From NCBI GenBank assembly GCA_944322585.1, contig CALUPB010000002.1, forward strand, positions 4,729-68,728: a DNA stretch of 64,000 nucleotides, written 5' to 3'. The translations under genes and the position numbers were made by a program. Shown piece by piece: positions 28,530 to 46,494 of the stretch (the stretch's first letter is position 1; the number at the start of each line of letters is the position of its first letter). The notes under the pieces were generated by a model. The model made no database searches. It was not told the origin of the DNA and saw nothing but the letters and a program-made list of their open reading frames with translations. The DNA is from an uncultured Bacteroidales bacterium (GTDB lineage Bacteria; Bacteroidota; Bacteroidia; Bacteroidales; UBA932).

Positions 28530-29918
28530 ATGAAACATAATATGAAAATACCTGTAATTGCAGCCGCCGTTATGGAGCTGCTTACGGTCACGGGATGCGA
28601 CAACAGCCAGTACAGACTGGAAAACCTGTACCCTGAAGAGTACCATAAGATAATTTCTTTTCAGGATGATGCGGTCAGCACGGACATAATGAAAATCTAT
28701 GACATAAACATAGATATCACCGAGACCGTCACACTGCTCAGAGGAGGAAGCGACCCTTCCTTGAAAGCCGTTGCCAGACTGCGGCCGATGACTGCCGAAG
28801 AAGCGGAAACCTATCTGACAAGCGGGACAGCACTCGACCCGCAATACTATTCAATCCGGACTCCGGAAATAGTCCTTGAACCTGAGGAAAGGTACAAGAG
28901 CGTGGAGATCGTATTCAGTGCTGAAAACATAGCCGGCATCAGGGACGCGATGTCGTCGGCTTCCGGAACACCGTTCTGTCTCGCCCTCATGCTCGACGGT
29001 CTGGACGGTACTTCCGTCAATGCGGACAAAAGCTATTTCGTGAGGGAAATCGAACTCGGGAAACCTGAAATAACCGTTACCGGAAGCTCTCTGACAGACA
29101 ATCCTGACTCATGGAGCACGGACCTCTCCGCAATGATGGACGGAGACAATATCTGGGATTTCAGCTGCAGGCTGCTCCGGGATGACTCATATATCGAAAA
29201 TTACAACTACAGTACCGGAGGGAACTACAATGCCCTGCCTGAAGGGACAAAAGTAAACTTCTCCGGCAACGGACAGCTCGATTTCATCAGCGGGAACCAC
29301 TTTTCACAGAACAGCGTAACTCTGACAGTATCCAAAGAAGGATTCGACTTCGACAATGCACCGTATGTCCTTCCGGTCGTCCTGAATATGGGAGAACTGG
29401 ATTTCGAAATGGCGAACCCGTATTACATGGTTATTGAAGGCGTAATTACCCTTACCGAAGACATGCTTTCCTGCCCTTTCGACCTGAGCGGCTATGACGG
29501 ACAGGGTCTGGCAGGCCTGATTGACGGGAATCTCTATGACACATACTGGCACACTCCTTACAATGACGATGCAGGAGGATACTATTTCAATGAAGACTAT
29601 GGACATTATTTCGACATCGATCTCGGGAAAGAAGTATCGAAAATAAAATGCAGGTACTACAACAGACCGGGACAGGAATCAAACTGGCCGAAAGACATAG
29701 AACTATATATCGGCAATGACGGAGAGAACTGGACACTGCTCGGCTCCCGGACAGACATCCCGGTCGAAGACCAGACAGTGGAACTCGGTCCTTTCGATTC
29801 TGAAGAGCCGTTCAGTTATCTGCGTATAAGCATAAAGAAAAACCAGCAGGATCTCAGACCGGGAGTGGACGACGGCGCATGCTCGCACATGTGTGAATTC
29901 CAGCTTTTCGGGATCTGA
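28530..29918 (+). CDS. DUF1735 lipoprotein with C-terminal F5/8 type C (discoidin/CBM32-like) domain
   Basis: Lipobox (VTGC); DUF1735-like Ig domains; C-terminal LIDGNLYDTYWH...FDIDLG...YYNR...MCEFQLFG. Confidence 0.8.
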   Translation: MKHNMKIPVIAAAVMELLTVTGCDNSQYRLENLYPEEYHKIISFQDDAVSTDIMKIYDINIDITETVTLLRGGSDPSLKAVARLRPMTAEEAETYLTSGTALDPQYYSIRTPEIVLEPEERYKSVEIVFSAENIAGIRDAMSSASGTPFCLALMLDGLDGTSVNADKSYFVREIELGKPEITVTGSSLTDNPDSWSTDLSAMMDGDNIWDFSCRLLRDDSYIENYNYSTGGNYNALPEGTKVNFSGNGQLDFISGNHFSQNSVTLTVSKEGFDFDNAPYVLPVVLNMGELDFEMANPYYMVIEGVITLTEDMLSCPFDLSGYDGQGLAGLIDGNLYDTYWHTPYNDDAGGYYFNEDYGHYFDIDLGKEVSKIKCRYYNRPGQESNWPKDIELYIGNDGENWTLLGSRTDIPVEDQTVELGPFDSEEPFSYLRISIKKNQQDLRPGVDDGACSHMCEFQLFGI

Positions 29919-29946
29919 CCGGACCCTTTTGTCAAACACCGATACA

Positions 29947-32058
29947 ATGAAAAATACAATTCTCTTCCTGACAGTTCTCTCTGCTGTCGTCTCCGGGTTG
30001 GAAGTTTCAGCCAGGAATGCCGACGGATCCAGATGGCATATAATAGATGGAGGCTACTCCATCCGATGGGATATACGGGACGACATTCCGCACTACGACC
30101 ACATCGAAATGAGCGGCGAGCAGGTGTCCGTAGTCTATTATTACGGAGTCAATGAGGACGGCTCATTCTCCATGGAGCGGTCGGTGATATGGCCCATGCT
30201 GCGCACCGTTCCCAATGACACACATGCAAGCCTCACTGTCCGGTTCGGGAGGGATTTCCTGTCGGGAATGACAGTGGACGGGAAACCGCTTGAAGACGAA
30301 AAAGTCGAATCCATCACTTTCGACGGGCTGCTGCACGCGGAATGCACATACGGCAATGCCGACGTAAAGGTAACGTCATGCTACTTCCCGTCCACGACAA
30401 GGGCTGCCGTCTGTGAGGAATATACGGTAACGAACACCGGAGACAAGACAGTGACCGTCTTTGTCCCTGCCGTCAGAAATGTCACTTCGACCGATCCCGA
30501 TGCAGGGACTGAAGGGAGCTATACACTGATAGAGGCTACCGGACACTTAAAGGACAGGACATACAGCATCGCTCCAGGGAAGAGCATTGTTTTCGGCGCC
30601 AGCATCAAGGGACTGAAAACACCGCAGGTGGAGATCCCGACAGACTCCGGGAAAGAAAAAGCGGAAAGGGAGAAGTTTGTGGAAATGATATGCAATGGCC
30701 TCGTACTCGACAGTCCGGATCCCGTACTGAACACGATGTTCGGATTCGCGAAGATCCGCGGGGCGGAAAGCATTTTCCGAACAAGAGGAGGACTTATGCA
30801 GTGTCCCGGAGGAGAGGCATACTATGCGGCAATCTGGTGCAATGACCAGGCAGAGTACATCAACCCGTTTTTCCCTTTTCTCGGATACGACAGGGGAAAC
30901 GAGTCCGCAATCACCAGTTTCATGCATTTCGCCAGATACATGAATCCCGAATTCAACTATGTGCCGTGGTCAGTGATTGCCGAGGGCTATGATGCATTCG
31001 GCCAGTTCGACAGGGGCGATGCCGCCATGCTCGCCTACGGGGCTTCAAGGTATGCCCTCGCCTTGGGCGACATGGAGACTGCCGAAGCACTGATGCCGCT
31101 CATTGACTGGAGTCTGGAATACTGCCGCCGCAAAATCAACGGAGACGGGGTAGTGGCTTCCACTGCCGATGAACTGGAGCTGCGTTTCCCGGCCGGAGAC
31201 GCCAATCTGTGCACTTCATCGCTCTACTATGACGCCCTGAGATCCACGGCATGGCTTATAGAGACTATGGCAGAAGAATATGCTTCCGGCGGCGGGGCCC
31301 CGGATAACGGCACGGCCGCCGGCAATCCGGACAACGGAGGCATTGCAGGGCCAGGCGGAACAGAAGAGGCCGCAGCCAGGGCGGTCGACCTCAGGGCGCA
31401 GGCCGACACCCTCAGGAAAAACATCGAGAAGCACTTCGGTGCCGAGATGAACGGGTTCCATACCTACAGATATTTCGAAGGCAATGACGTACTGCGCTCC
31501 TGGATATGCATCCCTCTCGTCATGGACATATTCGACAGGAAAGAAGGCACGGTCCAGGCCCTGCTCTCCCCTGTCCTCTGGTCGGAAAACGGAGTCTATA
31601 CCGAGGCTGGTACGGATGTATTCTGGGACAGGGCCACACTCTACGCATTACGGGGCATCTATGCTGCCGGTTATCCGGATAAAGCGACAGAACATCTGGC
31701 TGCCTATTCACGTCACCGCCTGCTCGGCGACCATGTCCCTTATCCGGTAGAGGCATGGCCCGAGGGAAACCAGCGGCATCTTTCCACCGAAAACGCCCTC
31801 TATTGCAGGATATTCACCGAAGGCATCCTCGGCTTCCGTCCGACAGGTTTCAGGACATTCACCCTCCGTCCGCAGCTTCCTGACGGTTGGGATCACTTTA
31901 CCCTGCGCAACATACACGCCTGCTCCGACCGTCCGTACGACATCATTGTAAAGCGTTCAGGGAAACGGCTTTCCATAACCGTCCGGCAGGACGGCAGGAA
32001 CATCCTCCGCTACAATGTCACCGAAGGCAAGGCCATCGAAGTCTCCATGCCCGGATGA
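29947..32058 (+). CDS. Secreted six-hairpin (alpha/alpha)6 glycosidase-like protein, family not assigned
   Basis: Start MKNTILFL at 29947 with signal peptide; YYAAIWCNDQAEY, DRGDAAM, DELELRFPAG, SSLYYDAL, YPVEAWPEG; beta-sandwich ends. Confidence 0.7.
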   Translation: MKNTILFLTVLSAVVSGLEVSARNADGSRWHIIDGGYSIRWDIRDDIPHYDHIEMSGEQVSVVYYYGVNEDGSFSMERSVIWPMLRTVPNDTHASLTVRFGRDFLSGMTVDGKPLEDEKVESITFDGLLHAECTYGNADVKVTSCYFPSTTRAAVCEEYTVTNTGDKTVTVFVPAVRNVTSTDPDAGTEGSYTLIEATGHLKDRTYSIAPGKSIVFGASIKGLKTPQVEIPTDSGKEKAEREKFVEMICNGLVLDSPDPVLNTMFGFAKIRGAESIFRTRGGLMQCPGGEAYYAAIWCNDQAEYINPFFPFLGYDRGNESAITSFMHFARYMNPEFNYVPWSVIAEGYDAFGQFDRGDAAMLAYGASRYALALGDMETAEALMPLIDWSLEYCRRKINGDGVVASTADELELRFPAGDANLCTSSLYYDALRSTAWLIETMAEEYASGGGAPDNGTAAGNPDNGGIAGPGGTEEAAARAVDLRAQADTLRKNIEKHFGAEMNGFHTYRYFEGNDVLRSWICIPLVMDIFDRKEGTVQALLSPVLWSENGVYTEAGTDVFWDRATLYALRGIYAAGYPDKATEHLAAYSRHRLLGDHVPYPVEAWPEGNQRHLSTENALYCRIFTEGILGFRPTGFRTFTLRPQLPDGWDHFTLRNIHACSDRPYDIIVKRSGKRLSITVRQDGRNILRYNVTEGKAIEVSMPG

Positions 32059-32180: not shown

Positions 32181-34484
32181 TTATTTCACGGTAAGTACAG
32201 CGTAATCGGATACGGTACTGCTTCCGCCGATGAATATCCTGAATTCGCCTGGTTCGACGACCTTTTCAAGATCATGGTTGTAGAAGCCCAGCAGGTCTGC
32301 ATCCACAGGGAACTCCACCGTACAGCTTTCCCCAGCGTCAAGCTCCACTTTCCTGAATCCCTTGAGTTCCCGGACAGGCCTGGTGCTGGAAGCCACCATA
32401 TCCCGGATATACATCTGGACAATCTCCTTTCCCTTCCTGCTGCCGGTATTCCGGACCTCCACACTCGCAGTCACCTGCCCGTCCGAGCTCATTTCTGCAG
32501 AACTGAGAACAACGTCCCCGTACTCGAACGAAGTGTAGCTCAGTCCGTACCCGAAAGGATAAAGCGGGTCATTGTCCACATCCAGATAGTTGGAACGGAA
32601 TTTCTGGAACCATTTGCCTTTGTCGAGCGGCCGTCCTGTATTCTTGTGGGCATAGTACACCGGTATCTGCCCCACATTCTTCGGGAATGACATGGTAAGT
32701 TTCCCGCAAGGATTCACATCTCCGAACAGGACGTCCGCAACGGCATGCCCGGTCTCCGAACCGCCGAACCAGACATCGAGTATCGCCGGAACATTCTCAT
32801 CTTCCCAGCACAGTGTAAGCGGCCTGCCGTTGAAAAGGACAAGCACTACAGGCTTTCCCGTAGCGACCAGCGCCTTGAGCAATTTCCGCTGTACATCAGG
32901 AAGGCCTATGTCGGAACGGCTCGAGCACTCGCCGGACATCTCCGACGCTTCACCGAGAACAGCTACCACCACATCCGCCCTGGCTGCCGTCGCCAACGCC
33001 TCAGAAAGCAGCTGCGCGTCACTCCTGCCGTCGCGCGGAATCGTCCTGCCGAACATCGTGGCCCGTTCCTCGTATTCCCTGTCTCCTATAAGATTGCTTC
33101 CTTTTGCATACAGAAGCCTGACCTTGTCCCCGACACATTCCTTCAGCCCGTCCATTACCGACACACAGCTGTCAAGACGGGCTGCCACGCTCCATGTCCC
33201 GGCCATGTTGGACCGAGTATCGGCAAGAGGCCCTATCACGGCGACTGTCCCTCCTTTCCTGAGAGGGAGTACGGAATTCTCGTTTTTAAGGAGGACAAAG
33301 GATTCGGCCGCTATACGTCTCGCAGCAGCGCGATGGCTGTCGCAGAACACAAGATTTTCCACGTCTTCCGGCCGGCAGAACCTGTACGGGTCATCGAACA
33401 GACCCAACCGGTATTTGGCTTCAAGTATACGGCGGCACGCATTGTCGAGGACATCCATGGATATCTTCCCTTCCTCTATGCCCTTCCCCACATATTTGAA
33501 CAGCCCCTCGCTCACCATATCCATATCGAGTCCCGCCTCTATAGCCCGCAGGCTGACTGTCTCCATGTCACCGATCCCGTGGGCCACCATCTCCATGACC
33601 CCGGTATAGTCGGAAACCACAAATCCGTCAAAGCCCCATCTGTCTCTCAGGACATCCTGCATGAGCCATTTGTTGGCAGTGGCCGGAATGCCCTCCACTT
33701 CGTTGAAGGACATCATCACGCTGCCGGCTCCTGCATCCACAGCTGCCTTGTACGGTTCGAAATACTCGTTGAACATACGCTGACGGCTCATGTCGACGGT
33801 GTTGTAGTCCCTTCCGGCCTCAGAAGCCCCGTACAGGGCAAAATGCTTGACACAGGCCATCATCTGCCCGGGCTCCGTCAGTTGTGACTCTCTGTCGCTT
33901 CCCTGATAGCCGCGCACCATGGCCGCAGCTATGGCACTGCCAAGGAACGGATCTTCACCGCTTCCTTCCGCAATCCTGCCCCATCTCGGGTCCCTCGATA
34001 TGTCCACCATCGGACTGTATGTCCAGCATATCCCGTCCGCACTCGCCTCCGCCGCGGCTATCCTGGCGGATTCCTCGACGGCATCCATATCCCAGCTGCA
34101 TGAAAGTCCGAGAGGTATGGGGAATACCGTCTCATAACCGTGCACGACATCCATTCCGAAAAGCAACGGAATGCCCAGGCGGGATTCTTCGACCGCTATC
34201 CTCTGTATCTCACGTATCTTTTCATAACCCTTGATATTGAACAGCCCTCCGATCTCTCCCCTCCTTATCCTGTCGGCATCGGTGCTGCTTCGGGCCTCGC
34301 CTGTCGTTATCTCCCCGGCTGTCGGAAGATTGAGCTGTCCTATCTTCTCTTCGACAGTCATCCGGTCCATCAGTCCTGAAATGAATCTGTCCATCTCCCT
34401 GTCTGCATTCCCGCCGGGAACGGAAGTGCATGCCGCCGTAAAGGCCACGGCGGCACAAGCGAAAATAAATTTTCTGAAATCCAT
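32181..34484 (-). CDS. bglX: GH3 beta-glucosidase (BglX-like)
   Basis: Likely start MDFRKFIF at 34484; SRLGIPLLFGMDVVHG, RDPRWGR, CVKHF, nucleophile SDY, acid/base region MSGE, FN3 tail. Confidence 0.95.
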   Translation of the reverse strand: MDFRKFIFACAAVAFTAACTSVPGGNADREMDRFISGLMDRMTVEEKIGQLNLPTAGEITTGEARSSTDADRIRRGEIGGLFNIKGYEKIREIQRIAVEESRLGIPLLFGMDVVHGYETVFPIPLGLSCSWDMDAVEESARIAAAEASADGICWTYSPMVDISRDPRWGRIAEGSGEDPFLGSAIAAAMVRGYQGSDRESQLTEPGQMMACVKHFALYGASEAGRDYNTVDMSRQRMFNEYFEPYKAAVDAGAGSVMMSFNEVEGIPATANKWLMQDVLRDRWGFDGFVVSDYTGVMEMVAHGIGDMETVSLRAIEAGLDMDMVSEGLFKYVGKGIEEGKISMDVLDNACRRILEAKYRLGLFDDPYRFCRPEDVENLVFCDSHRAAARRIAAESFVLLKNENSVLPLRKGGTVAVIGPLADTRSNMAGTWSVAARLDSCVSVMDGLKECVGDKVRLLYAKGSNLIGDREYEERATMFGRTIPRDGRSDAQLLSEALATAARADVVVAVLGEASEMSGECSSRSDIGLPDVQRKLLKALVATGKPVVLVLFNGRPLTLCWEDENVPAILDVWFGGSETGHAVADVLFGDVNPCGKLTMSFPKNVGQIPVYYAHKNTGRPLDKGKWFQKFRSNYLDVDNDPLYPFGYGLSYTSFEYGDVVLSSAEMSSDGQVTASVEVRNTGSRKGKEIVQMYIRDMVASSTRPVRELKGFRKVELDAGESCTVEFPVDADLLGFYNHDLEKVVEPGEFRIFIGGSSTVSDYAVLTVK

Positions 34485-34561
34485 AAAACAATTATGGCTC
34501 ATCGTCCACATATCATTAAAGGGGCCGGACAGCATCACGGACACTGCCCGGCCCGGAAAAG

Positions 34562-35380
34562 CTATTCTTTAGGGACATAAATGGCAAATGCCGCCTTTAT
34601 CAGCTCATGCTGCCAGTCCTCCAGCTTCGGAGCATCCTTTACGGCAAGGTTGAATCCCCTGTAATTGAACTCTCCCCACCATGCATCATCCACGACCACA
34701 AGGTTCTGGGTGACATTGTCCGGACGCTTCACATCATCGGCTTCATTGAGGTTCACCCATCCGTCAGGCCTGTACTGGAAACCGCTCTTCACCACTATAA
34801 GGGACCCGTTAGGGATATCCTCCTTATCGAAGATAGGGGTCGCATCATAATTCTTCATCGTGAAATTCAGGTCTGAATTGCCTGCATCGGAATTATAATG
34901 CGCACCTTCGGTTATCACAAATTCAAGGCGGGTATAGTCTGCCGGATCATAGCCTGCATTCACTATAATCTCCTCGACTCCCGGCTTAGGGACGAAGATA
35001 CCGAATGAATATGACATGTCATCGTCTTCGGTAAGAGGCACCTTAGGATTCTTCGACAGGTTGAATCCCCTGAAGTTGAATTCTCCCCACCATGCCTCAT
35101 CGACTTCCACAACCTGTATCTGGACCTCTGCCGGACGGTTGCTGTTCGGCTGGTCGACAGCGACCCAGGCATCCGGTCTGTACTGGTATCCGGCCTTCTG
35201 CACTATGACGGAACCTACAGGTATATCGGATTTTTCGAAAACCTGTGTCGCGGCATAGATAGCCTGGTCGGTAAGTACGGTCGTATTACCGTTGCCGGAA
35301 TTGTAATAGCCAGGCTGCGTCAGCTTGAGGGTAAGCTGGGTATAGTCATCAGGATTATATCCTGCCGCCTCCAGAATACT
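34562..35380 (-). repeat. Intragenic tandem duplication (offset 411 bp)
   Basis: TTGAATCCCCTG...CTCCCCACCATGC at 34650 and 35061; protein motifs YRPDxW and WWGEFNxRGFNL each occur twice. Confidence 0.9.
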
Positions 35381-37114
35381 CGTCAGGTTTGAATTGACAT
35401 CCTCGTCATCCTCGGTAATGGTTGACTGAGTCACCTCGTACGGCTTCTCATAGGCATTGTTCACAGCCTCCTTTATCGCATCGACCTTGGCCTTGGTATA
35501 AATGTAGCCTTCCGGCTTCCAGCTGATCGCGTCGATGTCGCATCCGGTAATCTGCTTTGCCCACATCAGGGCTGCCGCATAGCGGCCTGCGGAATATTCG
35601 AGATGATAGCCGTCACGGGTCAGGTTGTCGCCGTAGAGACTTGTCCTGAGGTTCTGGATGGCGGTACCGCAAGGGATGACAATCTCGAATTCCGGATGTG
35701 CGTTGACTTTTGTCTGCACTGCATTCAGGATGGCATTGTACATCGTCATCTGGTCCTTGTTGTAGTTGGCGAACTCGGAATGCGTCGAATTGCCCTGATA
35801 AGCCCATGTCATATGCCACATCAGCTCCGCTCCCGGACAGTATTCGGTCACTTTCCGCACAAGTGTCGTGAGATAAGGCTCATATCTGTCGGCCATTCCG
35901 GACGAACCGCTGGCCTGCTGCATGGAGATATAGTCCCATTCGTCGCTCTTTATGGCGTCCACCGAACTGAAATTGTCGATGTTCTGCCATGTACCCGCCG
36001 TATTGATACGGTAAGTATATGCTCCGGCCCCGCTTTCTATATTGCCGGCATGCGTTTCAAGGGTACATCCCGGGATATACAGGTTTCCGAGCTTGATTGA
36101 TGTGTAGCCGGCGTCCTGAAGCACCTGCCAGAGATATTCCATGGCATCGTCGGAGAAACTGTTGCCTATTGCAAGAATTCTCAGCGACTCTTCGGTCTTC
36201 ATTCCGGACTGCCTTATCGTCACGGTCTTGGTGATTCCTCCATATTTGCTGGTGAAGGTAACGGTAGCCGTCCTCTCGTCAGGAGTAGTGTTGGCAGAGA
36301 CATTGAATACATAGGTGTTGGTACTGCTGGATTTGGTCGTGGATTCGGTTATCCACTGTTCTTCAGGCATCTTCACGACAACCGGAACATTGCTTGTGAC
36401 TTCCACCTTGACTTCGCCTCCTGCCGCAGGAAGGGCATAGGCCGATTTGGTCAGGACTATTTCCTGCTCGACACCTTCCTGATAAACGGTAAACTCTTCC
36501 GTCACCTCACCGTTGCTGAGGATTATCGTACCTTCCCTGACAGTGAAGGCTGTATTTTCGTCTACTGTAAACCTGATTTCAGTCTCGACTGCCTTGGAAG
36601 CCGGCTCGATGGTGATCCAGGACTTGTCCTTGTCGGCAACCGTTGCCGTGCAGGCATTCTTCGAACGGACGACAATCGCCTGCAGGCCTCCTGTGGCCGG
36701 CACTTCTATCCTGTTGGAAGTCATGGATATGCTGTTGGCCGGTTTCTGGGTCACGGTGATTGTCTTCCTCGCCACTCCGGACTTGATAAGGAACGATGCG
36801 TTTCGCTCGTCCACTTCCGTATTTTCCGCGAACTCGATGGAGATTGTGTTTTCCCCTATCGCTCCGCTCGTAGGACTGATTGTAAACCATTCATCCGCCC
36901 TGTCATTGACCATGGAGGCAGTCCAGCCGCCTTTGGTCGTGAACGCAATGGTCCTTACGCCTTCATTCTCGTCCACACAGATATTCGCGTCCGCCTCGTC
37001 CGCGAGAACGATGGACGAATTTTTCGGTTCCGGCGGGAATTTGTCTATCTCGCTCTCGCAGCTCCATAACAGGGAGCAGGCGACCGCCGCCATCAGATAT
37101 AATGTTGTTTTCAT
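34562..37114 (-). CDS. Lipoprotein with 3 BACON domains, a DUF4886 SGNH hydrolase and two C-terminal repeats
   Basis: Lipobox (LWSC); three ..N...ER.A.... BACON-type units; GNSF, WDYISMQQAS, WHMTWAY, RDGYH; duplicated ~137-aa tail. Confidence 0.85.
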   Translation of the reverse strand: MKTTLYLMAAVACSLLWSCESEIDKFPPEPKNSSIVLADEADANICVDENEGVRTIAFTTKGGWTASMVNDRADEWFTISPTSGAIGENTISIEFAENTEVDERNASFLIKSGVARKTITVTQKPANSISMTSNRIEVPATGGLQAIVVRSKNACTATVADKDKSWITIEPASKAVETEIRFTVDENTAFTVREGTIILSNGEVTEEFTVYQEGVEQEIVLTKSAYALPAAGGEVKVEVTSNVPVVVKMPEEQWITESTTKSSSTNTYVFNVSANTTPDERTATVTFTSKYGGITKTVTIRQSGMKTEESLRILAIGNSFSDDAMEYLWQVLQDAGYTSIKLGNLYIPGCTLETHAGNIESGAGAYTYRINTAGTWQNIDNFSSVDAIKSDEWDYISMQQASGSSGMADRYEPYLTTLVRKVTEYCPGAELMWHMTWAYQGNSTHSEFANYNKDQMTMYNAILNAVQTKVNAHPEFEIVIPCGTAIQNLRTSLYGDNLTRDGYHLEYSAGRYAAALMWAKQITGCDIDAISWKPEGYIYTKAKVDAIKEAVNNAYEKPYEVTQSTITEDDEDVNSNLTSILEAAGYNPDDYTQLTLKLTQPGYYNSGNGNTTVLTDQAIYAATQVFEKSDIPVGSVIVQKAGYQYRPDAWVAVDQPNSNRPAEVQIQVVEVDEAWWGEFNFRGFNLSKNPKVPLTEDDDMSYSFGIFVPKPGVEEIIVNAGYDPADYTRLEFVITEGAHYNSDAGNSDLNFTMKNYDATPIFDKEDIPNGSLIVVKSGFQYRPDGWVNLNEADDVKRPDNVTQNLVVVDDAWWGEFNYRGFNLAVKDAPKLEDWQHELIKAAFAIYVPKE

Positions 37115-37259: not shown

Positions 37260-38882
37260 TCAATGCAGGATAACCGGCAACTGGTGTATCCTGCCACCCG
37301 GAGCGGTAAGCCTTATGAAATACTTCTCTCCCCGGGTTACCCTGTCCGCCCCGAAGGCAAGACTGTTCAGGCCGGAGACCGCTTCAGGAGAAGCACTGTA
37401 TACGCATTCTCCCGTGGATTCCCGGACTACCTCTACCTTTGCCGTCCCTCCGTCACCCAGATAATAGTCCAGCTCGTACTTTTCCCTGTCCGGATGCTGC
37501 ATCATGTCCATATATCCGGAACCGGTCTCGATATTGGCGAACGGGAACCCGTCCTCGAACGACGGCATCCCTATGTCGGCCTTTTCGAGAGCAGCCTTGA
37601 CATGGTCATTGGACATCAGCAGATTCCAGATAAGGCCGCTGCGGTAGTTCTCGATCATCACTACGATAGGCCCCTGGTCTATTGCAAGATGATCCCGGTT
37701 GGCAGCCTTTTCGGAAGGCTTGTATGCATCCGCAAGCCCGAACTCTCCCTGACACTCGGATATTCTGTCCATATTAAGCAGCACCTGCGTCGAATAGAAA
37801 GGAGTGTACGGATATGCGGACAGTGCAGCCGTAGGAGCAATCACCCCGTCGTCATTCTGCGGATTGCGGGCTGAGTAATTCGGGCTCGAACCGGCTCCGT
37901 AGCAGGCTGTAAGACCCCACATGTCCACGCCGTAATCATAGGTTTCCGGAGCGGAATGGATGCAGTAATGTCTGTTGACCATGGTGTGGGAAAGGTTCTG
38001 CCGCCAGTACCATGCCTTGTCATCCTGCATGAAACGGGGATCAAACCCGAGGAAAGTATAATGGCTGAAGAACAGCGGTCCGCCGAGCTCGTTCCCGAGC
38101 GGAAGTTCATAGCCGTATGTCTTCCTCTGCGGGAATGACTGGAGGTTCCAGCCTCTTCTGTAGGTTTCGGCATCTATGCAATGCCCCTCGGGAGCGGCAA
38201 GAGCCATGAGATAAGTCACCAATGCCTCGTTCCAACCGGAAATCTTCAGGGAATAGGTATCGGTCTCCGAATACCAGAGCCAGTACAGGCCGTCCCCGTT
38301 CTCTCCTGTATATCCCGACCAGTCTACAGTCCTGTACAGATTGTCTATGTCTTCCCGCAGGCCTGTCTCCACATCATCGGTACCGTCGAAATATTCGTAT
38401 GCAGCCAGCAGACCGGCCATCATGAAGGAAGATTCCACAAGGTCTCCGGTCGCTTTCTGGTCCCCGAAAGCCACATAGGACCCGTCAGGACTGTACCAGT
38501 GCGACCATGCCCCCTTGTACCTGTCAGCTTCCGTAAGGAAATCCACGATTTTACGGAGCTGTCCTGTCCCTTCCTCCCTGGTAATCCATCCTCTCTCCAC
38601 ACCGACAATCAGGGCCATCACACCGAATCCGCTGCCACCGGTAGTAACCGTATTGCCGCGGTTATTGCCTTCATAGGCCATACCGCTCTGCGGATCCGCC
38701 CCGTTGTAGAAGAATTCGAATGCGGCCTTCTGCTGACGGTCGAGGACACGCCTCACGGCCGACGGCGCATAAGTCTGGTCCCCGGGAGAGAACCGGTCTC
38801 CCCCGGTATCGGCTCCGCTGCCGGAACTGCACGAGCAGGCGGACAGAGCCAGGACTACAGACAATGCAAATATCTTGTTCAT
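37260..38882 (-). CDS. GH144 (glucoamylase-family/DUF3131) beta-1,2-glucanase-like lipoprotein
   Basis: Likely start MNKIFALS at 38882 with lipobox (LSAC); TTGGSGFG, GDLVES, GWNEAL, GPLFFSHY, WGLTA, IAPTAAL, AIDQGPIVVMIENYRSGLIW. Confidence 0.88.
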   Translation of the reverse strand: MNKIFALSVVLALSACSCSSGSGADTGGDRFSPGDQTYAPSAVRRVLDRQQKAAFEFFYNGADPQSGMAYEGNNRGNTVTTGGSGFGVMALIVGVERGWITREEGTGQLRKIVDFLTEADRYKGAWSHWYSPDGSYVAFGDQKATGDLVESSFMMAGLLAAYEYFDGTDDVETGLREDIDNLYRTVDWSGYTGENGDGLYWLWYSETDTYSLKISGWNEALVTYLMALAAPEGHCIDAETYRRGWNLQSFPQRKTYGYELPLGNELGGPLFFSHYTFLGFDPRFMQDDKAWYWRQNLSHTMVNRHYCIHSAPETYDYGVDMWGLTACYGAGSSPNYSARNPQNDDGVIAPTAALSAYPYTPFYSTQVLLNMDRISECQGEFGLADAYKPSEKAANRDHLAIDQGPIVVMIENYRSGLIWNLLMSNDHVKAALEKADIGMPSFEDGFPFANIETGSGYMDMMQHPDREKYELDYYLGDGGTAKVEVVRESTGECVYSASPEAVSGLNSLAFGADRVTRGEKYFIRLTAPGGRIHQLPVILH

Positions 38883-38901
38883 AAGGTTTGTACGTATCAT
38901 A

Positions 38902-40401
38902 TCAATATCCAGGATTCTGGGTAAGTATTCCGTTCGAAGCATCTATTTCCTGCTGAGGGATAGGATAAAGCTCCTGCTTGTTCGGGACGAAATATTCGAT
39001 TTTTTCCTCTGCTTCTCCCCAGCGGATAAGGTCGAAATAACGCTCGAACTCGAGGGCAAGCTCAAACCGGCGCTCCTCATGGATAAGATCCCTGAGCTTG
39101 GTCTGGTCACGCTCCGTAATCTCAGGAAGGGCATCGGCGTCGTTCCCCCTTGCGCGTGCCCTCACCATTTCGAGTTTTGCAAGAGCCTCGTCGGTCTCCC
39201 CGAGCTCGTTGGCGGCCTCGGCATACATAAGGACTATGTCGGAATATCTTATCATTCTGATATTTAGCCATGTAGCATTAGGATTGTTCCTGTTGTACAT
39301 CTGCTGCTCATAAAGCGGGGCATATACCTTGGCATTGTAGTGAGGATTCGGCACTTCCGCAGACTGGAAGACCACTCCGTCTCTGACATCGCCGTCACTG
39401 AGGACTGTGGCATGATAGCGGGGATCATCTTTCATATCATCCCTAAGCTGTTTGCTCGGGCCGTTCATGCCCCATCCGCAGTTAGGCTGTCCGCGGAATC
39501 CCTGGATGCTCGCCCACTGTTTGTTACCACCTGTCGAGATGGAAAGTGACGGCTTATCGTCCACGTCGAACTCATATATTGACTCCGGTCCGAACTCATA
39601 TTTCTCCGTCCATATCTCGTCGAACGGGGTGGAAAGGTCATTGTCTCCGGACTCGATGATCTGTCTGCAGTAACTCATGGAAGTGGCCCAGTCTTTCTGG
39701 TACATGTAGATCTTGGCCAGCACCGCCCTTGCGGAATTCTGCGAAACCCTTCCGAGATTCCCTGCCTCCACGAGAGCCTTGCGGGTTTCGAGATACGGGA
39801 CGGACCAGTTGAGATCCTCTATGATATTTGCATATACCTGGGTATACGGAGTACGCGGAGGGGTCTTTTCGTCCTGTTCGAGCTCCTGCTCCACGAACGG
39901 CACGTCCCCGAAAGCCTGCACAAGTCTGAAATATGCGTGTGCACGGATCGTAAGGGCCTGGGCCTTGTAGTTGTTCACTTTCTCCGCAGTGAGACTTTCA
40001 TCGAACTGGCCTGCCGCATCGCAGTATTCGATGGCTCTGTTACAGTATGTGATGACGCTGTACCACGCATTGTAGTACTGTCGTACCACACCTGCGCTTG
40101 CATCCCATGTATGGGCGTCTATCACCATCGCCCAGGACATGTCGGAAGCCGTACTTCCCTTGTCGGCATCATCCGTCGCTATGGAATGGAGACACGGGGC
40201 TCCGGCATTGAAATCATAGCTGTGCTGTGCGTTATACGCCTGGGCGAGTTCTCCTTCGATAAGGATATTATAGGGGATTTCTTCAGCCTCGAAATTTTCC
40301 GAGTGCCACTGGCCGTACGGATATCTTTCCAGAAAATCCTCTCCGCAGCCTGCAAGGACGAATCCCGCAACGGCCAGACTTATTATGGATATGTTTTTCA
40401 T
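38902..40401 (-). CDS. susD: RagB/SusD family lipoprotein
   Basis: Lipobox (LAGC); RAHAYFRLVQAFGDVP, IRYSDIVLMYAEA, ERRFELALE, QNPGY. Confidence 0.95.
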   Translation of the reverse strand: MKNISIISLAVAGFVLAGCGEDFLERYPYGQWHSENFEAEEIPYNILIEGELAQAYNAQHSYDFNAGAPCLHSIATDDADKGSTASDMSWAMVIDAHTWDASAGVVRQYYNAWYSVITYCNRAIEYCDAAGQFDESLTAEKVNNYKAQALTIRAHAYFRLVQAFGDVPFVEQELEQDEKTPPRTPYTQVYANIIEDLNWSVPYLETRKALVEAGNLGRVSQNSARAVLAKIYMYQKDWATSMSYCRQIIESGDNDLSTPFDEIWTEKYEFGPESIYEFDVDDKPSLSISTGGNKQWASIQGFRGQPNCGWGMNGPSKQLRDDMKDDPRYHATVLSDGDVRDGVVFQSAEVPNPHYNAKVYAPLYEQQMYNRNNPNATWLNIRMIRYSDIVLMYAEAANELGETDEALAKLEMVRARARGNDADALPEITERDQTKLRDLIHEERRFELALEFERYFDLIRWGEAEEKIEYFVPNKQELYPIPQQEIDASNGILTQNPGY

Positions 40402-40410
40402 GACTTGAGA

Positions 40411-43400
40411 TTAGAAAGTAAGGTTGATACCGAAAGTATAGGATGAAGGGATCGGATATGTACCGCCGTCATCTATGTTGGCATTGAGGATACCTCCGCC
40501 GATTTCAGGTGTATAGCCTGTCGTATTCTTGAATGTAAGAGGATTCTGGGCCTGGATATACACGTACACGTTGCTGAACTTGATGGCATCCAGGGCCTTC
40601 TTCGGGATTGTGTATCCGAGCTGGATATTGCGGATCCTGAAATACGAACCGTCCTCTATCGCCACGGTAGAGCAGAGGGAGTTCTGCGGTCTGGTGGAGT
40701 CGAGTATAGGGAGCTTGTCGGAAGTCCCCGGGCCGTGCCACCTTCCGAGCTGTTCCTTATAGTAATTGTACTGGGCATAGGACTGCCAGTATTTCGTGTT
40801 CATGATATCCACACCTGTCACGCCGTTCATGTCGACGCTAAGGTTGAAATTCTTGTAACCCAATCTGATGTTGATACCGTACATGAACGAAGGAATGGTC
40901 TTCCCTATGAAATCGCGGTCCTGGTCGTTGAACTTTCCGTCATTGTTGAGATCGGCATATTTGATGTCTCCCGCCTTGAACACATACGAAGAAGTGTGGT
41001 TGGCATTGAATTCATCGGCCTCCTCCTGGGTCTGGAACACGCCCTCTGCGACATAGCCGTAGAAAGAACCTACAGGCTGTCCCACTGCCGTACGGTGATA
41101 GTTGCCGGAAGTGATGTAGCTGTCATCATTGCCGAGTGCAAGGACCTTGTTCTTGATTGTGGAACCGTTGAAACTTACATTATAGTTGAAGTCCCCGATA
41201 CGGTCTTCCCATGACACCACGAATTCCACGCCCTGGTTGCTGAGCGAACCGGCATTCGTGATGGCATAACCGCTGCCGACCGATACCGTAGGCTGCACAT
41301 GGGCAAGCAGATCGGATGTCTTCTTGTAATAGTACCCGAGTTCGACTGCAAGACGGCTGTTGAACATCCTCATGTCGGTACCTATATCGAATGTGGAAAC
41401 GGTCTCCCAATGGATGTTCTGGTCCACCTGATATGAAGTCACAGGAATATAATATGTCTCGCCGTCGGATGTGATGGTCGTCCCACGAGGGTTTATGGTA
41501 GGGTAGGCCAGATAATCGCCTATCTTGTCATTACCCGCGACTCCGTAGCTTGTCCTCAGCTTCCAGAAGTTCAGCCAGTCGGCCTTCTGCATGAATTTCT
41601 CGTCGGAAATCACCCAACCGAGGCCGACAGAAGGGAAGAGTCCCCAGCGGTGGTCACGTCCGAACTTGGACGAACCGTCGTAACGGAGGGTCGCAGTGAG
41701 AAGATAACGGTCGAGAACGGTAAGGTTGACCCTGCCGAGCCAGGAAATGAAGGCATTGGAAGAACGCCAGTCCGAATTCTTCCTGGACTTGTCATCACCG
41801 AGATTCAACATCCGCATGCTCTCGGGAATGTTCCAGTACGAGCCGTTGATAAGGGTATCGACGCTGGCACTGAAGCCTACTCCGTCATATTCCTTGGCGG
41901 TGAATCCGACCACGGCATTGACCCTTACCTTGTCTGTCACCTTGGCATAGCTCAGGGTAATGTCCGCCTGGCTTTTCTTGTATTCCCCGACAGACCTGCT
42001 GAAAGAGGTATATCTGCTGTACTGGGAAGACGCCGAACCTCCGTTGGTCACATAATATTTAGGATTGTATGAGCTGGAGAACTGGGCGGTATAGTCGAAA
42101 TATCCAGCTGCCTTGAATGTGAAATCCTTGAGGAAATTGATCTCGACAAAGCCGTTGAACAGTCCCTGGTATGCATAGCTCTCGCTGTTACCGCGTGAGA
42201 TGAGCATGGCTGCCACCGGGTTTCCGACATCCTTCTGGATATTGTCGGCCGGCGTGAAATACGAGCCAAGGTTGTTCTCGTCCCAATAGTCTTCGGAATC
42301 ATAAGGTCCGTAGGTAGGAATGACCCTCGCAGTAGAAGAAAGGCTGACATTGGACGGGTCTGTCGTACGGTAACGCAGATTGGCCTGGATTCCGGCCTTC
42401 AGCCAGTTGCCGACCTTGAACTCGTTGTTATGCCTTATGTTGATGTTGTCATAGGCATTGTATTTCACGACTCCCTCATTGTGGAGATAGCTCAGGGAAG
42501 TGATTGAGGAGCCCTTTTCCCCTCCCCTCGACAGGGTCACGGTATGATTGGTGAAGAAAGCCGGACGGAGAACGAGATCTATCCAGTCCGTTCCTTCTCC
42601 GGTGAGCTGCGGAACCCACGGGGTAGCTTCGGGATCCATGTTCGTAAGGAGCTCGTTGTAGAGCATCGTGAATTCGTCGGCATTGCAGAGCTTCAGCCTG
42701 TCCCTGTTGTGGACTACTGATACTCCGGCCGTACCGCTGTAGCTTACGTTCACTCCGTCGTCCTCGGCCTTTCTGGTAGTGATGATGATTACGCCGTTGG
42801 CTCCCTGCACACCGAACATCGCAGTGGAAGAAGCGTCCTTGAGGACTTCGATGGAAGCGATGTCGTTGAGGTTAAGCCAGGAAATGTCATCCGTCAGCAT
42901 ATTGTCCACTACATACAGCGGCGTCGTGCTTGCCCTTACGGTCGAAACACCTCTCAAAGTCACTGTAGGAGTACCTTCGGCTGCTCCGGAATTGATGATG
43001 TACAGTCCCGGCACCTTGCCCTGGAGGGCCTCCAGAGGGCTGTTGGTGGCGGCCATCTTGATGTCATCGCCCCTTACCGTCGTGATGGAACCGGTAAGGT
43101 CCCTTTTCCTCTGTGTTCCGTAGCCGACTACGACCGTCTCTTCGAGTTCGAGGATTTCATCCTCCATGACCACATCGAATTTACCCCCCCCGGCGATATT
43201 CACCTTCAGGGTTTTCATTCCAGTCATGGAAAAGGTCAGCTCCGCCCCGGAAGGGACCTCGATGCTATAGTTGCCATCATTGTCCGTGATAGTATAGATG
43301 TCTCCATACGTCACGGCAACACCGGGTAATGGCTCTCCGAATGTCTTGCCCTTGACGGACCCGGTAACCTTGACATTTGTCTGCGCTGCCGCAGTCATGA

Positions 43401-43443
43401 CGGCAAGCAGAACTGCAAGTAAAACTGTCAGTGTTTTTTTCAT
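40411..43443 (-). CDS. susC: SusC/RagA TonB-dependent transporter
   Basis: Likely start MKKTLTV at 43443; VLKDASSTAMFGVQGANGVIIITT; ends GINLTF. Confidence 0.96.
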   Translation of the reverse strand: MKKTLTVLLAVLLAVMTAAAQTNVKVTGSVKGKTFGEPLPGVAVTYGDIYTITDNDGNYSIEVPSGAELTFSMTGMKTLKVNIAGGGKFDVVMEDEILELEETVVVGYGTQRKRDLTGSITTVRGDDIKMAATNSPLEALQGKVPGLYIINSGAAEGTPTVTLRGVSTVRASTTPLYVVDNMLTDDISWLNLNDIASIEVLKDASSTAMFGVQGANGVIIITTRKAEDDGVNVSYSGTAGVSVVHNRDRLKLCNADEFTMLYNELLTNMDPEATPWVPQLTGEGTDWIDLVLRPAFFTNHTVTLSRGGEKGSSITSLSYLHNEGVVKYNAYDNINIRHNNEFKVGNWLKAGIQANLRYRTTDPSNVSLSSTARVIPTYGPYDSEDYWDENNLGSYFTPADNIQKDVGNPVAAMLISRGNSESYAYQGLFNGFVEINFLKDFTFKAAGYFDYTAQFSSSYNPKYYVTNGGSASSQYSRYTSFSRSVGEYKKSQADITLSYAKVTDKVRVNAVVGFTAKEYDGVGFSASVDTLINGSYWNIPESMRMLNLGDDKSRKNSDWRSSNAFISWLGRVNLTVLDRYLLTATLRYDGSSKFGRDHRWGLFPSVGLGWVISDEKFMQKADWLNFWKLRTSYGVAGNDKIGDYLAYPTINPRGTTITSDGETYYIPVTSYQVDQNIHWETVSTFDIGTDMRMFNSRLAVELGYYYKKTSDLLAHVQPTVSVGSGYAITNAGSLSNQGVEFVVSWEDRIGDFNYNVSFNGSTIKNKVLALGNDDSYITSGNYHRTAVGQPVGSFYGYVAEGVFQTQEEADEFNANHTSSYVFKAGDIKYADLNNDGKFNDQDRDFIGKTIPSFMYGINIRLGYKNFNLSVDMNGVTGVDIMNTKYWQSYAQYNYYKEQLGRWHGPGTSDKLPILDSTRPQNSLCSTVAIEDGSYFRIRNIQLGYTIPKKALDAIKFSNVYVYIQAQNPLTFKNTTGYTPEIGGGILNANIDDGGTYPIPSSYTFGINLTF

Positions 43444-43467
43444 AATGTTATGTGGTTTGTGGTGCTG

Positions 43468-43598
43468 CAAAAATATAATCCCCCAGACAAAAACGGCAAA
43501 AAGGACGTACTCGAAAAACACTACATACAGAAGGCAGCCGTGACAGGCTGCCCTACAAAAGCACTACATACATGCTTAAATATCTGTTTATCAGATAT
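43468..43598 (-). promoter_or_regulatory. susC promoter and candidate LuxR-type operator
   Basis: TATTTTTG (complement of 43468-43475) with TTTG 21 nt upstream; CACTACATAC at 43519 and 43562; CTACA at 43553 and 43564; ATATCTG/CAGATAT palindrome at 43580-43598. Confidence 0.6.
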
Positions 43599-43610: not shown

Positions 43611-46466
43611 TTACTTTTTCGCTGACGACAATGACATCAAGTATACATTGAGCGGCATGGAAGAATCCACCTGAAGTTTCTTCCTCAACCTGTATTTGGC
43701 CACTTCCGCCCCCTTGACCGTAATACCCATGATGTTGGCTATCTCTTTCGTGGACATGTTGAGACGAAGATAGGCGCAAAGCCTGAGGTCATTCGGAGTA
43801 AGGTCTCCGTGCATCGCCTTGAGCGATCTGAAGAACGACTTGTGGATAAGGTCGAAATTAGTGAAAAAATGATTCCAGTTGTCTTCCGTGAATTCCCCGT
43901 CCCTTATTATCTCCATAAGCCTGTCATAATCCTTTTTATGGATACCCGGACGGTCGCTGTAATAAATCCTTGACAGTTCCTCCGAAAGATGCTTGAGGAC
44001 ATTGTTCCTTCTGGCCTCGATCAGCGAATATGTCGCAAGCTCCTTGCTCTTGAGCAGGACGGATTCCTCCAGCTGCTCGTTCCTTATCGACATCAGATCC
44101 CTCTCATGCTTCAGCATTTCCTGCTCCATCGCTTCCGCATTCTTTTTGGCAAGGGCAGTGCGCTGGCGCTCCAGCAGTTTCCTGACAAATATTACCGCCA
44201 TGGCGCACAGCCCCGCAAATGACAGGACATAAAGCATCAGAAATACAGGCGAAGCGAACAGGGAAGGTCTGACCGTGACAGAGATTTCCTTTCTTGCGAC
44301 CTCGTGCCCTATTGCATCGGATGCCCTCAATTCCAGCCTGTAGGTCCCGGCCGGCAGTCTCTGCCAGGACGCTGTCATGTCGTCCCCGAGCATCTGCCAT
44401 GACCAGTCGTATCCGGACAGCATGGATTCTACCTTTATGCGGTTGGGGAACCGTTCTCCTGTCAGGGCGGCATACACCGAAAGTCCGGACTTGTTCGGCA
44501 CCGTGATTCTGTCGTCGGATATCTTGTAAGTCTGCCTGCTGTCCGCCTTTTGCGAACATATCCCCCTGAAGAGGATTTTCACTGCAAGGGAATCCGGAGA
44601 TTGCCCCGAGACATAGTGATGGACAAGAAATCCCTGTTCCGTACCCACAAGATACCTGTCATCGTTCCATGATGCGACCGCACTCGGCTCGGACATGCTC
44701 ATGTCATATTTGGAGCAGTCTACAAAATCGATTATATCGGCCCTGCCGTCAGAGGAAACACCTGCAAGAACCGCCCTGTCGTCCCTTATCAGCCAATAAC
44801 GGCCATGTCTGGCATCCGTTACCATGTCGCAGGTCCTGAACTCCCCGAGGCTCTCGTTGAAAACCTCATACGGCATCATCCTGCGGGTCATGTCATCATA
44901 ATAGCTGAAGCCGTCGGCATCGTGGAAAAGGACGCGGCCTTCCACCTTACAGATGTGCCTGTCCGAACCGCCCCAGTATTCCACGTCCACTACATCCTTG
45001 AGATCTCCGGAAAGACGTAACCTGTACAGACCCGTATACATATGTTCAAGCCAGAGATTGCCGAGATGGTCGACCTCGATCCTGTTGACCGGACGGAGAA
45101 ATCCGTTGACGGTATTCCGGAACCGCCATTTCCCGTCCCCGTCCTGCTCATAGACATACAGAGATGTGAACGAGCCCTGGATCATATACATCCTGCCGTC
45201 ATCTCCCGGAACAAGCCGAGGTTCCGTACCGCCGGGAGCATCGGACAACACAGTGTATCCCCCTCCGTTGTCAAGCCGGTACGTATTCTTCTCGTCCCCG
45301 ACTATGATCTGTCCCATGACTTCCGAAATGCTCCACACCTGATTCGCAGGCCTGATTTTACGGGAAAGCCTCTCCGCATGCTGTCCGGATGACAAATCCA
45401 CGACAGAAAGGCCCTGCTTCGTACCGGCATACAGCCTGTCCCCGCAAACATATGCTGCCGTAATCTCCACAGTATTCGACATGGACGGAGGTATCATATA
45501 GTCCCCGTCCTTGAAAATGACGACAAGGCCCTTTGCAAGGGCAGCCCATACATTACCGCAAGAGTCCTCAATCAGACAATGTACCGTACTGTTTATAAGA
45601 CCGTTGTCAGAATCGAGATGCCACAGCGTATGCCCCGTTTCGGAGAATGCATATATTCCCGAGCCGCGGAATCCGACAATGACAGTCCCGTCAGAACACC
45701 GGATTGCCCTGTTGGCGATCCCCCAATCCTTTCCAAGGCCGTCCACCCTCCTGTAGCCGTCCCGACCTGAAACATACATGCCATCCTTCTCGCATATTGC
45801 GATTCTGCCGCCGGAAGAGGAATGGAATATCTTCATGGCAGGCCCAGGAAGAGCGTCCGGCGGAATAATGTCATAACCTTCGGAAACTCCGTCGTATTTC
45901 CTGATTTCTCCGGAACGCTGCACCAAATACAGACTGCCTTCAAGGACATAATGCCATGATGTAAGGGCATAATGCTGGGACACTTCCTCCGTATCCGTGT
46001 CATATACATAGTAAGTCGAAAAGAATATGAAGAAAATCCTGTTCCCCACTCTCTCTATATACCAGATCTGGTCATTACCGAGCTGTTCACTGTCAAAGCG
46101 TTCTGCGAGAGACACATAAGTCAGGGAACCGTCCTGAGCCGGCACAAGATAGCCGAATTCCCTCAAACCGCCGATATAGACCCTGTCGCTGTCCCGGTCG
46201 GCATACAGGGAACGCAGAAAAACATTCCTGCCTTCCCCGAAAGGATACAGTTTCTCCCATGATTTCCCGTTGAAACGCAACAGGCAGTCATCGTTACAGG
46301 CATATATATAGCCGTTGACATCCTGCGCCATAGACCAGTTCTGGTTGGCAGCTCCGTAGTCCTTCGGTTTATAATTGGTAAAGAACGGAGGGAATGCACC
46401 GGCCGACATGCCGGCAAGGCATATCAGGGAAAAGGTCAGGAGCAGTTTCAGGACAGTCTCTTTCAT
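43611..46466 (-). CDS. Periplasmic beta-propeller/Y_Y_Y sensor fused to a LuxR-type HTH regulator
   Basis: Likely start MKETVLK at 46466; propeller repeats, LPAGTYRLELRA, TM helix, and LTPNDLRLCAYLRLNMSTKEIANIMGITVKGAEVAKYRLRKKL. Confidence 0.9.
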   Translation of the reverse strand: MKETVLKLLLTFSLICLAGMSAGAFPPFFTNYKPKDYGAANQNWSMAQDVNGYIYACNDDCLLRFNGKSWEKLYPFGEGRNVFLRSLYADRDSDRVYIGGLREFGYLVPAQDGSLTYVSLAERFDSEQLGNDQIWYIERVGNRIFFIFFSTYYVYDTDTEEVSQHYALTSWHYVLEGSLYLVQRSGEIRKYDGVSEGYDIIPPDALPGPAMKIFHSSSGGRIAICEKDGMYVSGRDGYRRVDGLGKDWGIANRAIRCSDGTVIVGFRGSGIYAFSETGHTLWHLDSDNGLINSTVHCLIEDSCGNVWAALAKGLVVIFKDGDYMIPPSMSNTVEITAAYVCGDRLYAGTKQGLSVVDLSSGQHAERLSRKIRPANQVWSISEVMGQIIVGDEKNTYRLDNGGGYTVLSDAPGGTEPRLVPGDDGRMYMIQGSFTSLYVYEQDGDGKWRFRNTVNGFLRPVNRIEVDHLGNLWLEHMYTGLYRLRLSGDLKDVVDVEYWGGSDRHICKVEGRVLFHDADGFSYYDDMTRRMMPYEVFNESLGEFRTCDMVTDARHGRYWLIRDDRAVLAGVSSDGRADIIDFVDCSKYDMSMSEPSAVASWNDDRYLVGTEQGFLVHHYVSGQSPDSLAVKILFRGICSQKADSRQTYKISDDRITVPNKSGLSVYAALTGERFPNRIKVESMLSGYDWSWQMLGDDMTASWQRLPAGTYRLELRASDAIGHEVARKEISVTVRPSLFASPVFLMLYVLSFAGLCAMAVIFVRKLLERQRTALAKKNAEAMEQEMLKHERDLMSIRNEQLEESVLLKSKELATYSLIEARRNNVLKHLSEELSRIYYSDRPGIHKKDYDRLMEIIRDGEFTEDNWNHFFTNFDLIHKSFFRSLKAMHGDLTPNDLRLCAYLRLNMSTKEIANIMGITVKGAEVAKYRLRKKLQVDSSMPLNVYLMSLSSAKK

Positions 46467-46494
46467 CTCGGACAGGCTCAAGTCTTTAATACTG

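Follow-up and report, generated by a model that had tools for sequence, protein, structure and literature searches.

Natural osmoregulated periplasmic glucans (OPGs) and cyclic β-1,2-glucans are commonly O-succinylated and sometimes O-acetylated. Esterases are commonplace in polysaccharide utilization loci (PULs) for xylan, mannan, pectin and xyloglucan; in the literature found, none was described for PULs that target β-1,2-glucan. Here, we analysed gene P0001, which encodes a predicted lipoprotein with a DUF4886 domain in a PUL of an uncultured Bacteroidales bacterium (assembly GCA_944322585.1). The PUL lies on a 64,000-nucleotide stretch of contig CALUPB010000002.1 (positions 4,729 to 68,728), referred to as the window. 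We propose, tentatively and at somewhat short of an even chance, that P0001 is a carbohydrate O-acyl esterase, held by a lipid anchor and probably exposed on the cell surface, that de-acylates β-1,2-glucans (OPG or cyclic) in this PUL. That it is an active carbohydrate esterase is likely.

The closest described protein is 4I8I (BACUNI_01406 of Bacteroides uniformis), the only solved DUF4886 protein, in which a bound acetate ion was recorded and in which the blocks GNSFS, IGGCSL, QQASPL and D-x-YH were listed (PMC10792757). P0001 belongs to the same Pfam family at ~40% identity, and its blocks I, II, III and V are alike. Whereas 4I8I is a single domain of 271 aa, P0001 further comprises a lipid anchor, three BACON domains and two C-terminal repeats and is encoded in a PUL. 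P0001 also resembles Geobacillus Axe2, the carbohydrate esterase (CE) family 3 enzyme of Clostridium thermocellum and a sialate O-acetylesterase of Phocaeicola in its SGNH α/β/α fold and the Ser...Asp-x-x-His order, but differs from them in sequence (12–16% identity), in structure (template modelling (TM) score ~0.5) and in having a Gln-Gln pair in place of the block III Asn.

Among described loci, PUL61 of Bacteroides thetaiotaomicron has the same core set as the locus in the window, with genes for a glycoside hydrolase (GH) of family 144 (BT3566), a very similar GH3 (BT3567), SusD (BT3568) and SusC (BT3569). The one phenotype reported for PUL61 is growth on laminaribiose (PMC8121099). For an esterase that acts on periplasmic glucans, the nearest functional precedent is EstG of Caulobacter crescentus, which its preprint presents as an OPG-linked esterase that acts on a cyclic periplasmic glucan and works with a BglX-type GH3 (bioRxiv 10.1101/2022.04.12.488081). 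As described there, EstG has a β-lactamase/transpeptidase-like fold and is a periplasmic housekeeping enzyme of an OPG producer; its sequence is unrelated to P0001.

A predicted modular lipoprotein with an intact SGNH-fold domain

The DUF4886 domain of P0001 matched Pfam family PF16227 over profile positions 1–242 of 242 (E = 4.5e-80; 268.6 bits, cut-off 26.7). Its conserved blocks were assigned by alignment to those of 4I8I listed in PMC10792757. Block I was GNSFS (residues 317–321, G317-N-S319-F-S321) and contained the Gly-x-Ser nucleophile motif. Block II was IPGCTL (347–352), aligned to IGGCSL of 4I8I, and block V was D501-G-Y-H504 within RDGYH, an Asp-x-x-His motif. Block III was QQASGS (399–404) instead of the canonical Gly-x-Asn-Asp with its oxyanion-hole Asn. 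The structure 4I8I has itself been placed in an SGNH group without the block III Asn (PMC10792757), and because SASA-like and DltD-like SGNH families share this trait, the missing Asn is a variant within the SGNH superfamily and no ground for exclusion from it.

When 19 diverse DUF4886 domains (from Bacteroidota, Bacillota, Mycoplasmatota and Spirochaetota) were aligned, the invariant positions were G317, N318, S319, F320, S321, D323, H355, W393, D394, Q399, Q400, S402, S405, G406, the MWHMTWAY stretch, D501, G502 and H504, and Gly349 was kept in at least 90% of the sequences. The catalytic core was at least 97% conserved among 182 family members. Against 4i8i, the domain gave a phmmer match with E = 1.9e-54 over residues 308–565. 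An AlphaFold2 (AF2) model, for which the 19-sequence alignment was the input, had a predicted local distance difference test (pLDDT) score of 96.1 and superimposed on 4i8i in Foldseek with a TM of 0.94 (E = 2.1e-29; root-mean-square deviation 1.3 Å). The further Foldseek matches at TM ~0.5 and 12–16% identity were the uncharacterised proteins 4s1p and BT3161, the acetyl-xylo-oligosaccharide esterase Axe2, CE3 esterases, a platelet-activating factor acetylhydrolase (PAF-AH) and the Phocaeicola sialate O-acetylesterase; values for Axe2, CE3 and CE2 ranged over TM 0.44–0.52 and 12–15% identity. P0001 thus contains an intact SGNH-fold serine hydrolase domain (clan CL0264) from a family without measured activity.

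A search of the PDB with a DUF4886 profile reached no characterised enzyme and returned only 4i8i and the uncharacterised 4s1p. Likewise, sequence comparison revealed no significant similarity to a characterised member of the SGNH-type CAZy CE families (CE2, CE3, CE12, CE17 and others), and as far as the available comparisons show, P0001 belongs to no current CAZy CE family. A 2022 review explicitly described DUF4886 as a family without known activity (PMC9487903), and literature searches on DUF4886, PF16227 and 4I8I turned up no characterised member, including after that review. Because DUF4886 has no characterised member, we infer the esterase activity of P0001, as we do its surface location, its acyl group and, from gene context, its substrate.

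The open reading frame (ORF) was uninterrupted over all 850 aa, as judged from the ORF list and the translation, and full-length homologues covered 100% of it. The N-terminus, MKTTLYLMAAVACSLLWSC followed by ESEIDK, contained a lipobox with Cys19 (LWSC19) and the acidic tail ESEID, which, as read from the sequence, resembles the surface-export signal reported for Bacteroidota lipoproteins. Pfam detected BACON (PF13004) in three stretches (E = 1.5e-29) and BACON_2 (PF19190) in two. The initial annotation of this DNA had described intact SGNH motifs (GNSF and RDGYH) on a stalk of three BACON domains, encoded between GH144 and GH3 genes of a β-1,2-glucan PUL, in a largely uncharacterised family. 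These points held up, and none of the matches is due to chance: Ser319, Asp501 and His504 were present and invariant or nearly so in the sets of 19 and 182 sequences, the three PF13004 stretches corresponded to the stalk, the flanking genes were those named, the enzymes and regulator of the locus (see below) agreed with the proposed glucan, and the review and later literature agreed on the status of DUF4886. Its bounds for the gene, 35430–37114, were correct at the start and too short at the lower end; they spanned residues 1–561 only, the ORF ends at 34562, and the ~290 further residues beyond 35430 were two paralogous repeats.

The second of these C-terminal repeats was delimited at 712–838 by phmmer domains. 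AF2 predicted an all-β fold for the repeats (pLDDT 90.9), whose best Foldseek match was the tandem of carbohydrate-binding module (CBM) family 22 in 4xup (E = 5.7e-4); sugar-binding domains of GH2 enzymes were also matched, weakly. Pfam searches at E up to 10 gave sub-threshold matches only (DUF6252, E = 0.0014; CE2_N, E = 0.13), from which a family was not assignable. Homologues had one to four copies. DUF4886 was nearly always the partner domain of the repeats; in some proteins BACON was the sole partner, and a few had dockerin or CBM6. The repeats share conserved Tyr, Trp, Arg and Asn residues that are compatible with a glycan-binding role. Judging by the modelled fold, the repeats look like CBMs and represent a candidate new binding module. 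At one locus with P0001 relatives (L008), tandem lipoproteins of ~620 aa (5468–7327 and 7836–9698) had two repeats each, without DUF4886 or a Pfam domain, and adjoined a BACON-DUF4886 gene and an aldose epimerase gene.

The GH144 locus and its orthologues

P0001 was the fifth of six co-oriented genes on the reverse strand, running from 46481 down to 32181 in the order regulator, SusC, SusD, GH144, P0001 and GH3 (Table 1). The gaps on either side of P0001 were 145 bp and 17 bp. With an adjacent SusC/SusD pair, co-oriented glycan-active enzymes and a regulator, the segment qualified as a PUL. Its predicted GH144 (P0003) matched the endo-β-1,2-glucanase 5gzh of Chitinophaga (Cpin) with E = 5e-102, and its GH3 (P0002) matched BT_3567 (5xxl) with 1158 bits. 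NCBIfam gave no match for P0001 or P0003. The regulator (P0006) contained Reg_prop, Y_Y_Y at residues 679–737 and a single hydrophobic span (PVFLMLYVLSFAGLCAMAVIFV), and matched neither kinase domains (HisKA, HATPase) nor REC. The match of its C-terminal region to a helix-turn-helix (HTH) domain (residues 908–936) was weak (E = 0.0019), so that its membership in the BguR-type regulators is probable rather than certain. The architecture described for BguR is the same (a propeller and Y_Y_Y sensor, one transmembrane span, a C-terminal HTH, and neither kinase nor receiver domains); BguR has been reported only in β-glucan PULs, and one distinct clade of it goes with GH144 PULs (bioRxiv 10.64898/2026.01.10.698779). 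Because of the similarity of the GH144 to 5gzh and of the GH3 to BT_3567, together with the BguR-type regulator, the locus can be read as a β-1,2-glucan PUL, an assignment well founded by homology.

Table 1. Coordinates of the features of P0001, its PUL and its orthologous PULs. Positions refer to the window, or to the named locus where one is given.
Feature	Location	Strand	Basis
P0001, whole gene, 850 aa: lipoprotein signal, three BACON, DUF4886, two C-terminal repeats	34562..37114	-	ORF list, translation
Signal peptide with lipobox, Cys19 then acidic ESEID	37058..37114	-	sequence reading
Three BACON domains, ~residues 35-305, boundaries approximate	36200..37012	-	Pfam PF13004 and PF19190
DUF4886/SGNH-fold catalytic domain, residues 312-554	35453..36181	-	Pfam, phmmer, AF2 and Foldseek
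Codon of predicted nucleophile Ser319	36158..36160	-	invariant in 19- and 182-sequence sets
Codons Asp501 ... His504, block V acid and base	35603..35614 (Asp501 35612-35614; His504 35603-35605)	-	
Two paralogous ~135-aa β-sandwich repeats, residues 576-705 and 712-850	34565..35389	-	self-alignment, phmmer, AF2
P0002, GH3 β-glucosidase, BglX/BT_3567-like, three domains	32181..34544	-	Pfam, NCBIfam, 5xxl/5xxn ~1158 bits
P0003, GH144 family, predicted endo-β-1,2-glucanase	37260..38942	-	PF10091 E = 6.3e-55; 5gzh/5gzk ~1e-102
P0004, SusD-like	38902..40401	-	Pfam
P0005, SusC-like TonB-dependent transporter	40411..43521	-	Pfam
P0006, probable BguR-type membrane-spanning one-component regulator	43611..46481	-	Pfam
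Second esterase, L001	9234-9995		
Second esterase, L005	9186-9974		
Second esterase, L082	6886-7689		
Second esterase, L083	9261-10004		
GH125 between DUF4886 and GH3, L001	12566-13984		
GH125 between DUF4886 and GH3, L002	12598-13980		
GH125, likewise between DUF4886 and GH3, L003, L005 and L083			

The arrangement around P0001 was conserved in its closest relatives. In a one-genome-per-species collection, relatives of P0001 were found at 70 loci, with GH144 within 10 kb at four of them (L001, L002, L003, L005). Contig look-ups added the same PUL at L075 (P0025), L081 (P0008, 84% identical), L082 (P0013) and L083 (P0022). A maximum-likelihood tree of 77 DUF4886 domains placed the GH144-linked copies in a single clade (support 99/93), and one change sufficed to explain the GH144 label. 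The series regulator, SusC, SusD, GH144 and DUF4886 was present in all nine non-identical clade members, at 52–84% identity, and GH3 in eight of them.

Among the nine orthologous PULs, four (L001, L005, L082, L083) encoded an α/β-hydrolase esterase of 247–267 aa directly after GH144, with Pfam matches to Abhydrolase_2, Esterase or Esterase_PHB. The PUL in the window was without it. Such an additional esterase, with a fold unlike that of DUF4886, points to an ester-bearing imported glycan, possibly with two kinds of ester, and is the best contextual argument for an esterified substrate. Elsewhere in the source genome, which had three DUF4886 genes and one GH144, a DUF4886 domain (residues 27–269) was fused to a complete three-domain GH3 in a protein of 1046 aa (contig C15, 114–3254, forward strand), with GH88-like and further GH3 genes downstream. 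This fusion independently links the domain in function to exo-β-glucosidase action.

Several further features were seen in and near these loci. The C-terminal extension of ~100 aa in the GH144 of the window (residues 461–560; 37260–37562, reverse strand) had no Pfam match and was common to the GH144 of genome G001. BguR was described in marine Bacteroidota (bioRxiv 10.64898/2026.01.10.698779), and the regulator found here belongs to a GH144 PUL of gut or rumen Bacteroidales. The genes rplQ and rpoA flanked the PUL at one end, and at the other end it met a convergent, unrelated PUL. This convergent PUL (22310–32058, forward strand) consisted of a DUF6377 regulator, SusC, SusD and a BT_3987-like/F5_F8_type_C protein, as well as proteins of 337 and 721 aa without a Pfam match. 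The third DUF4886 paralogue of the source genome (contig C4, 164354–166291, reverse strand; 645 aa) combined Big_2, DUF4886 and an unassigned C-terminal part of ~200 aa; its gene belonged to a further SusC/D-type locus, which also encoded large unassigned proteins.

Substrate and competing explanations

In the proposed mechanism, the lipid anchor would put P0001 on the cell surface, where the three BACON domains would hold the enzyme away from the membrane. The repeats most likely bind the glycan, and would hold substituted β-1,2-gluco-oligosaccharides such as the OPGs or cyclic glucans that Proteobacteria shed. In the hydrolysis of O-acyl esters, Ser319 would act as the nucleophile, with His504 and Asp501 as base and acid. 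Ser319 and Gly349 would form the oxyanion hole through their backbone NH groups, with the Gln-Gln pair replacing the block III Asn. P0001 would thereby remove acetyl and/or succinyl groups, after which GH144 could cleave the backbone, SusCD import the products and GH3 release glucose.

The initial annotation had suggested that O-succinyl or O-acetyl groups are stripped ahead of GH144, an activity it took to be undescribed. Literature searches on GH144 with esterase, and on SGNH with BACON and PUL, indeed turned up no description. The stripping step itself gained support from the retention of P0001 in the PUL in 9/9 clade members and from the second esterase in 4/9; there was no sign of succinyl specificity. 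A re-tooled succinyl esterase, for instance one with an acquired Arg or Lys close to its active site, was considered and dropped: the positions specific to the GH144 clade were R312, S339, K341, D386 and D391 only, and none of the five lay in blocks I, II, III or V. With paralogues 64–71% identical and catalytic blocks unchanged, there is no case for succinyl specificity or for an OPG-tailored enzyme. As the acyl group, acetyl is at least as likely as succinyl.

The same annotation had asked for DUF4886-GH144 co-occurrence across genomes, and the link between the two proved to be confined to the clade. The order was sampled with 301 genomes, in which GH144 occurred in 79, strong DUF4886 (at least 125 bits) in 15 and both in seven. 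In one of these, G086, the two genes were 13.5 kb apart. Within the source family (121 genomes), DUF4886 was found in nine genomes only and the 850-aa form in none of the others. G269, of the same genus, had GH144 in a different, non-orthologous arrangement (37–40% identity) without DUF4886. The association of DUF4886 with GH144 is thus genuine and has been stably inherited, yet it reflects one recruitment into one PUL lineage and no family-wide rule.

Several observations weigh against the de-acylation of β-1,2-glucans by P0001. In the literature found, no DUF4886 member had a measured activity, and block III of P0001 was without the canonical Asn. The link to GH144 was limited to the single clade: none of the 66 family loci outside it had GH144 within 10 kb, DUF4886 adjoined GH144 in only one of the 79 GH144 genomes of the order, the source genome, and co-occurrence at the genome level was not significant (7/15 versus 72/286; odds ratio 2.6, Fisher p = 0.07). 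Similar PULs also exist without the gene. The PUL of G001, which had the nearest GH144 outside the clade (51% identity), was without DUF4886, and its slot after GH144 was filled by a CBM30-like protein of the type IX secretion system (T9SS); PUL61 was without a DUF4886 gene (none was found in the control genomes, including B. thetaiotaomicron) and without any other esterase. In addition, five of the nine orthologous PULs (L001, L002, L003, L005, L083) encoded a GH125 (E ~1e-171). GH125 is a family known for exo-α-1,6-mannosidases. It is not explained by a pure β-1,2-glucan and hints at a more complex substrate; the PUL in the window was without GH125, which occurred elsewhere in the source genome. 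Finally, the catalytic domain of P0001 was 64–71% identical to two paralogue groups of ~717 and ~705 aa in non-glucan contexts, and its active-site blocks were unchanged relative to these paralogues, which lie beside unrelated genes.

This last point also speaks for a somewhat unlikely alternative, namely that P0001 is a broad-specificity sugar acetyl esterase that was co-opted into the PUL as a convenient surface module, its real substrates being something other than OPG-type glucans. These might be acylated plant β-glucosides, sophorosides or acetylated oligosaccharides in general. Its closest structural relatives of known function are acetyl esterases, and its relatives were found in varied company. 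The ~717-aa paralogues adjoined two α/β-hydrolase esterases and NagB-like and PIG-L genes, one DUF4886 gene adjoined a second DUF4886, a GDSL_3 esterase and a GH3, another lay beside a GH5, some relatives carried dockerin or CBM6, and the fusion to GH3 described above fits the same pattern. When Pfam domains were tallied for 125 neighbours of family members outside the clade, no partner dominated, so that guilt by association is uninformative outside the clade. However, P0001 was kept in 9/9 orthologous GH144 PULs at 52–84% identity, which argues for action on what the PUL imports. In addition, the GH144 enzymes characterised to date need β-1,2-gluco-oligosaccharides, not simple glycosides.

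Two DUF4886 contexts involved phosphoesterases. P0091 and P0113 were fusions of 1430–1470 aa that combined BACON, Laminin_G_3, a calcineurin-like phosphoesterase and DUF4886, and the DUF4886 gene at L014 was flanked by two phosphoesterase genes (6349–9036 and 11686–13077), which pairs an ester-cleaving with a phosphoester-cleaving module.

It is highly improbable that P0001 is mainly a surface glycan-binding protein (SGBP) whose BACON domains and repeats capture glucan for SusCD while the esterase is accessory or little active. The gene does follow SusD and GH144, in the slot that SGBP genes usually take in PULs, the CBM30-like T9SS protein of G001 holds the equivalent slot, and proteins with BACON and repeats but without DUF4886 exist. 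Yet no catalytic residue varied, either within the clade or across the wider family, and because of this a purely structural or decayed domain is not expected.

Peptidoglycan O-acetyl esterases and lipases are also found among SGNH enzymes. Action on a non-glucan ester, such as peptidoglycan O-acetyl groups, another envelope polymer or a lipid, with a misleading PUL neighbourhood, would accord with the lipases and PAF-AH among the Foldseek matches and with the ~705-aa paralogues, whose conserved gene block also encodes a PGM/PMM-family mutase, an M23-LysM peptidase and an aldose epimerase, but is very improbable given the co-oriented, tightly spaced position of P0001 in the PUL, its BACON and CBM-like modules, which are typical of glycan-active surface proteins, and the heterogeneous neighbours elsewhere in the family, among which no theme dominated.

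Meaning for DUF4886 and for glucan use in Bacteroidales

Few SGNH families have a solved structure and yet no known activity; DUF4886 is one of them, and the locus in the window provides an unusually specific substrate hypothesis for it. If P0001 were a generic acetyl esterase, the outcome would be a routine gain in annotation. If it de-acylates β-1,2-glucans, DUF4886 would found a new carbohydrate esterase family, a de-decoration step would be added to the known β-1,2-glucan pathway of GH144, GH3 and related enzymes, and the C-terminal repeats would probably define a new binding module. That DUF4886 founds a new CE family acting on the O-acyl groups of glucose residues, the GH144-PUL clade is the first known de-acylase (for succinyl and/or acetyl) of OPGs or cyclic β-1,2-glucans and the repeat is a new CBM family that targets it is, taken together, unlikely in our judgement. 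On the proposed function, gut and rumen Bacteroidales would scavenge substituted periplasmic glucans from the Gram-negative bacteria (Proteobacteria) around them.

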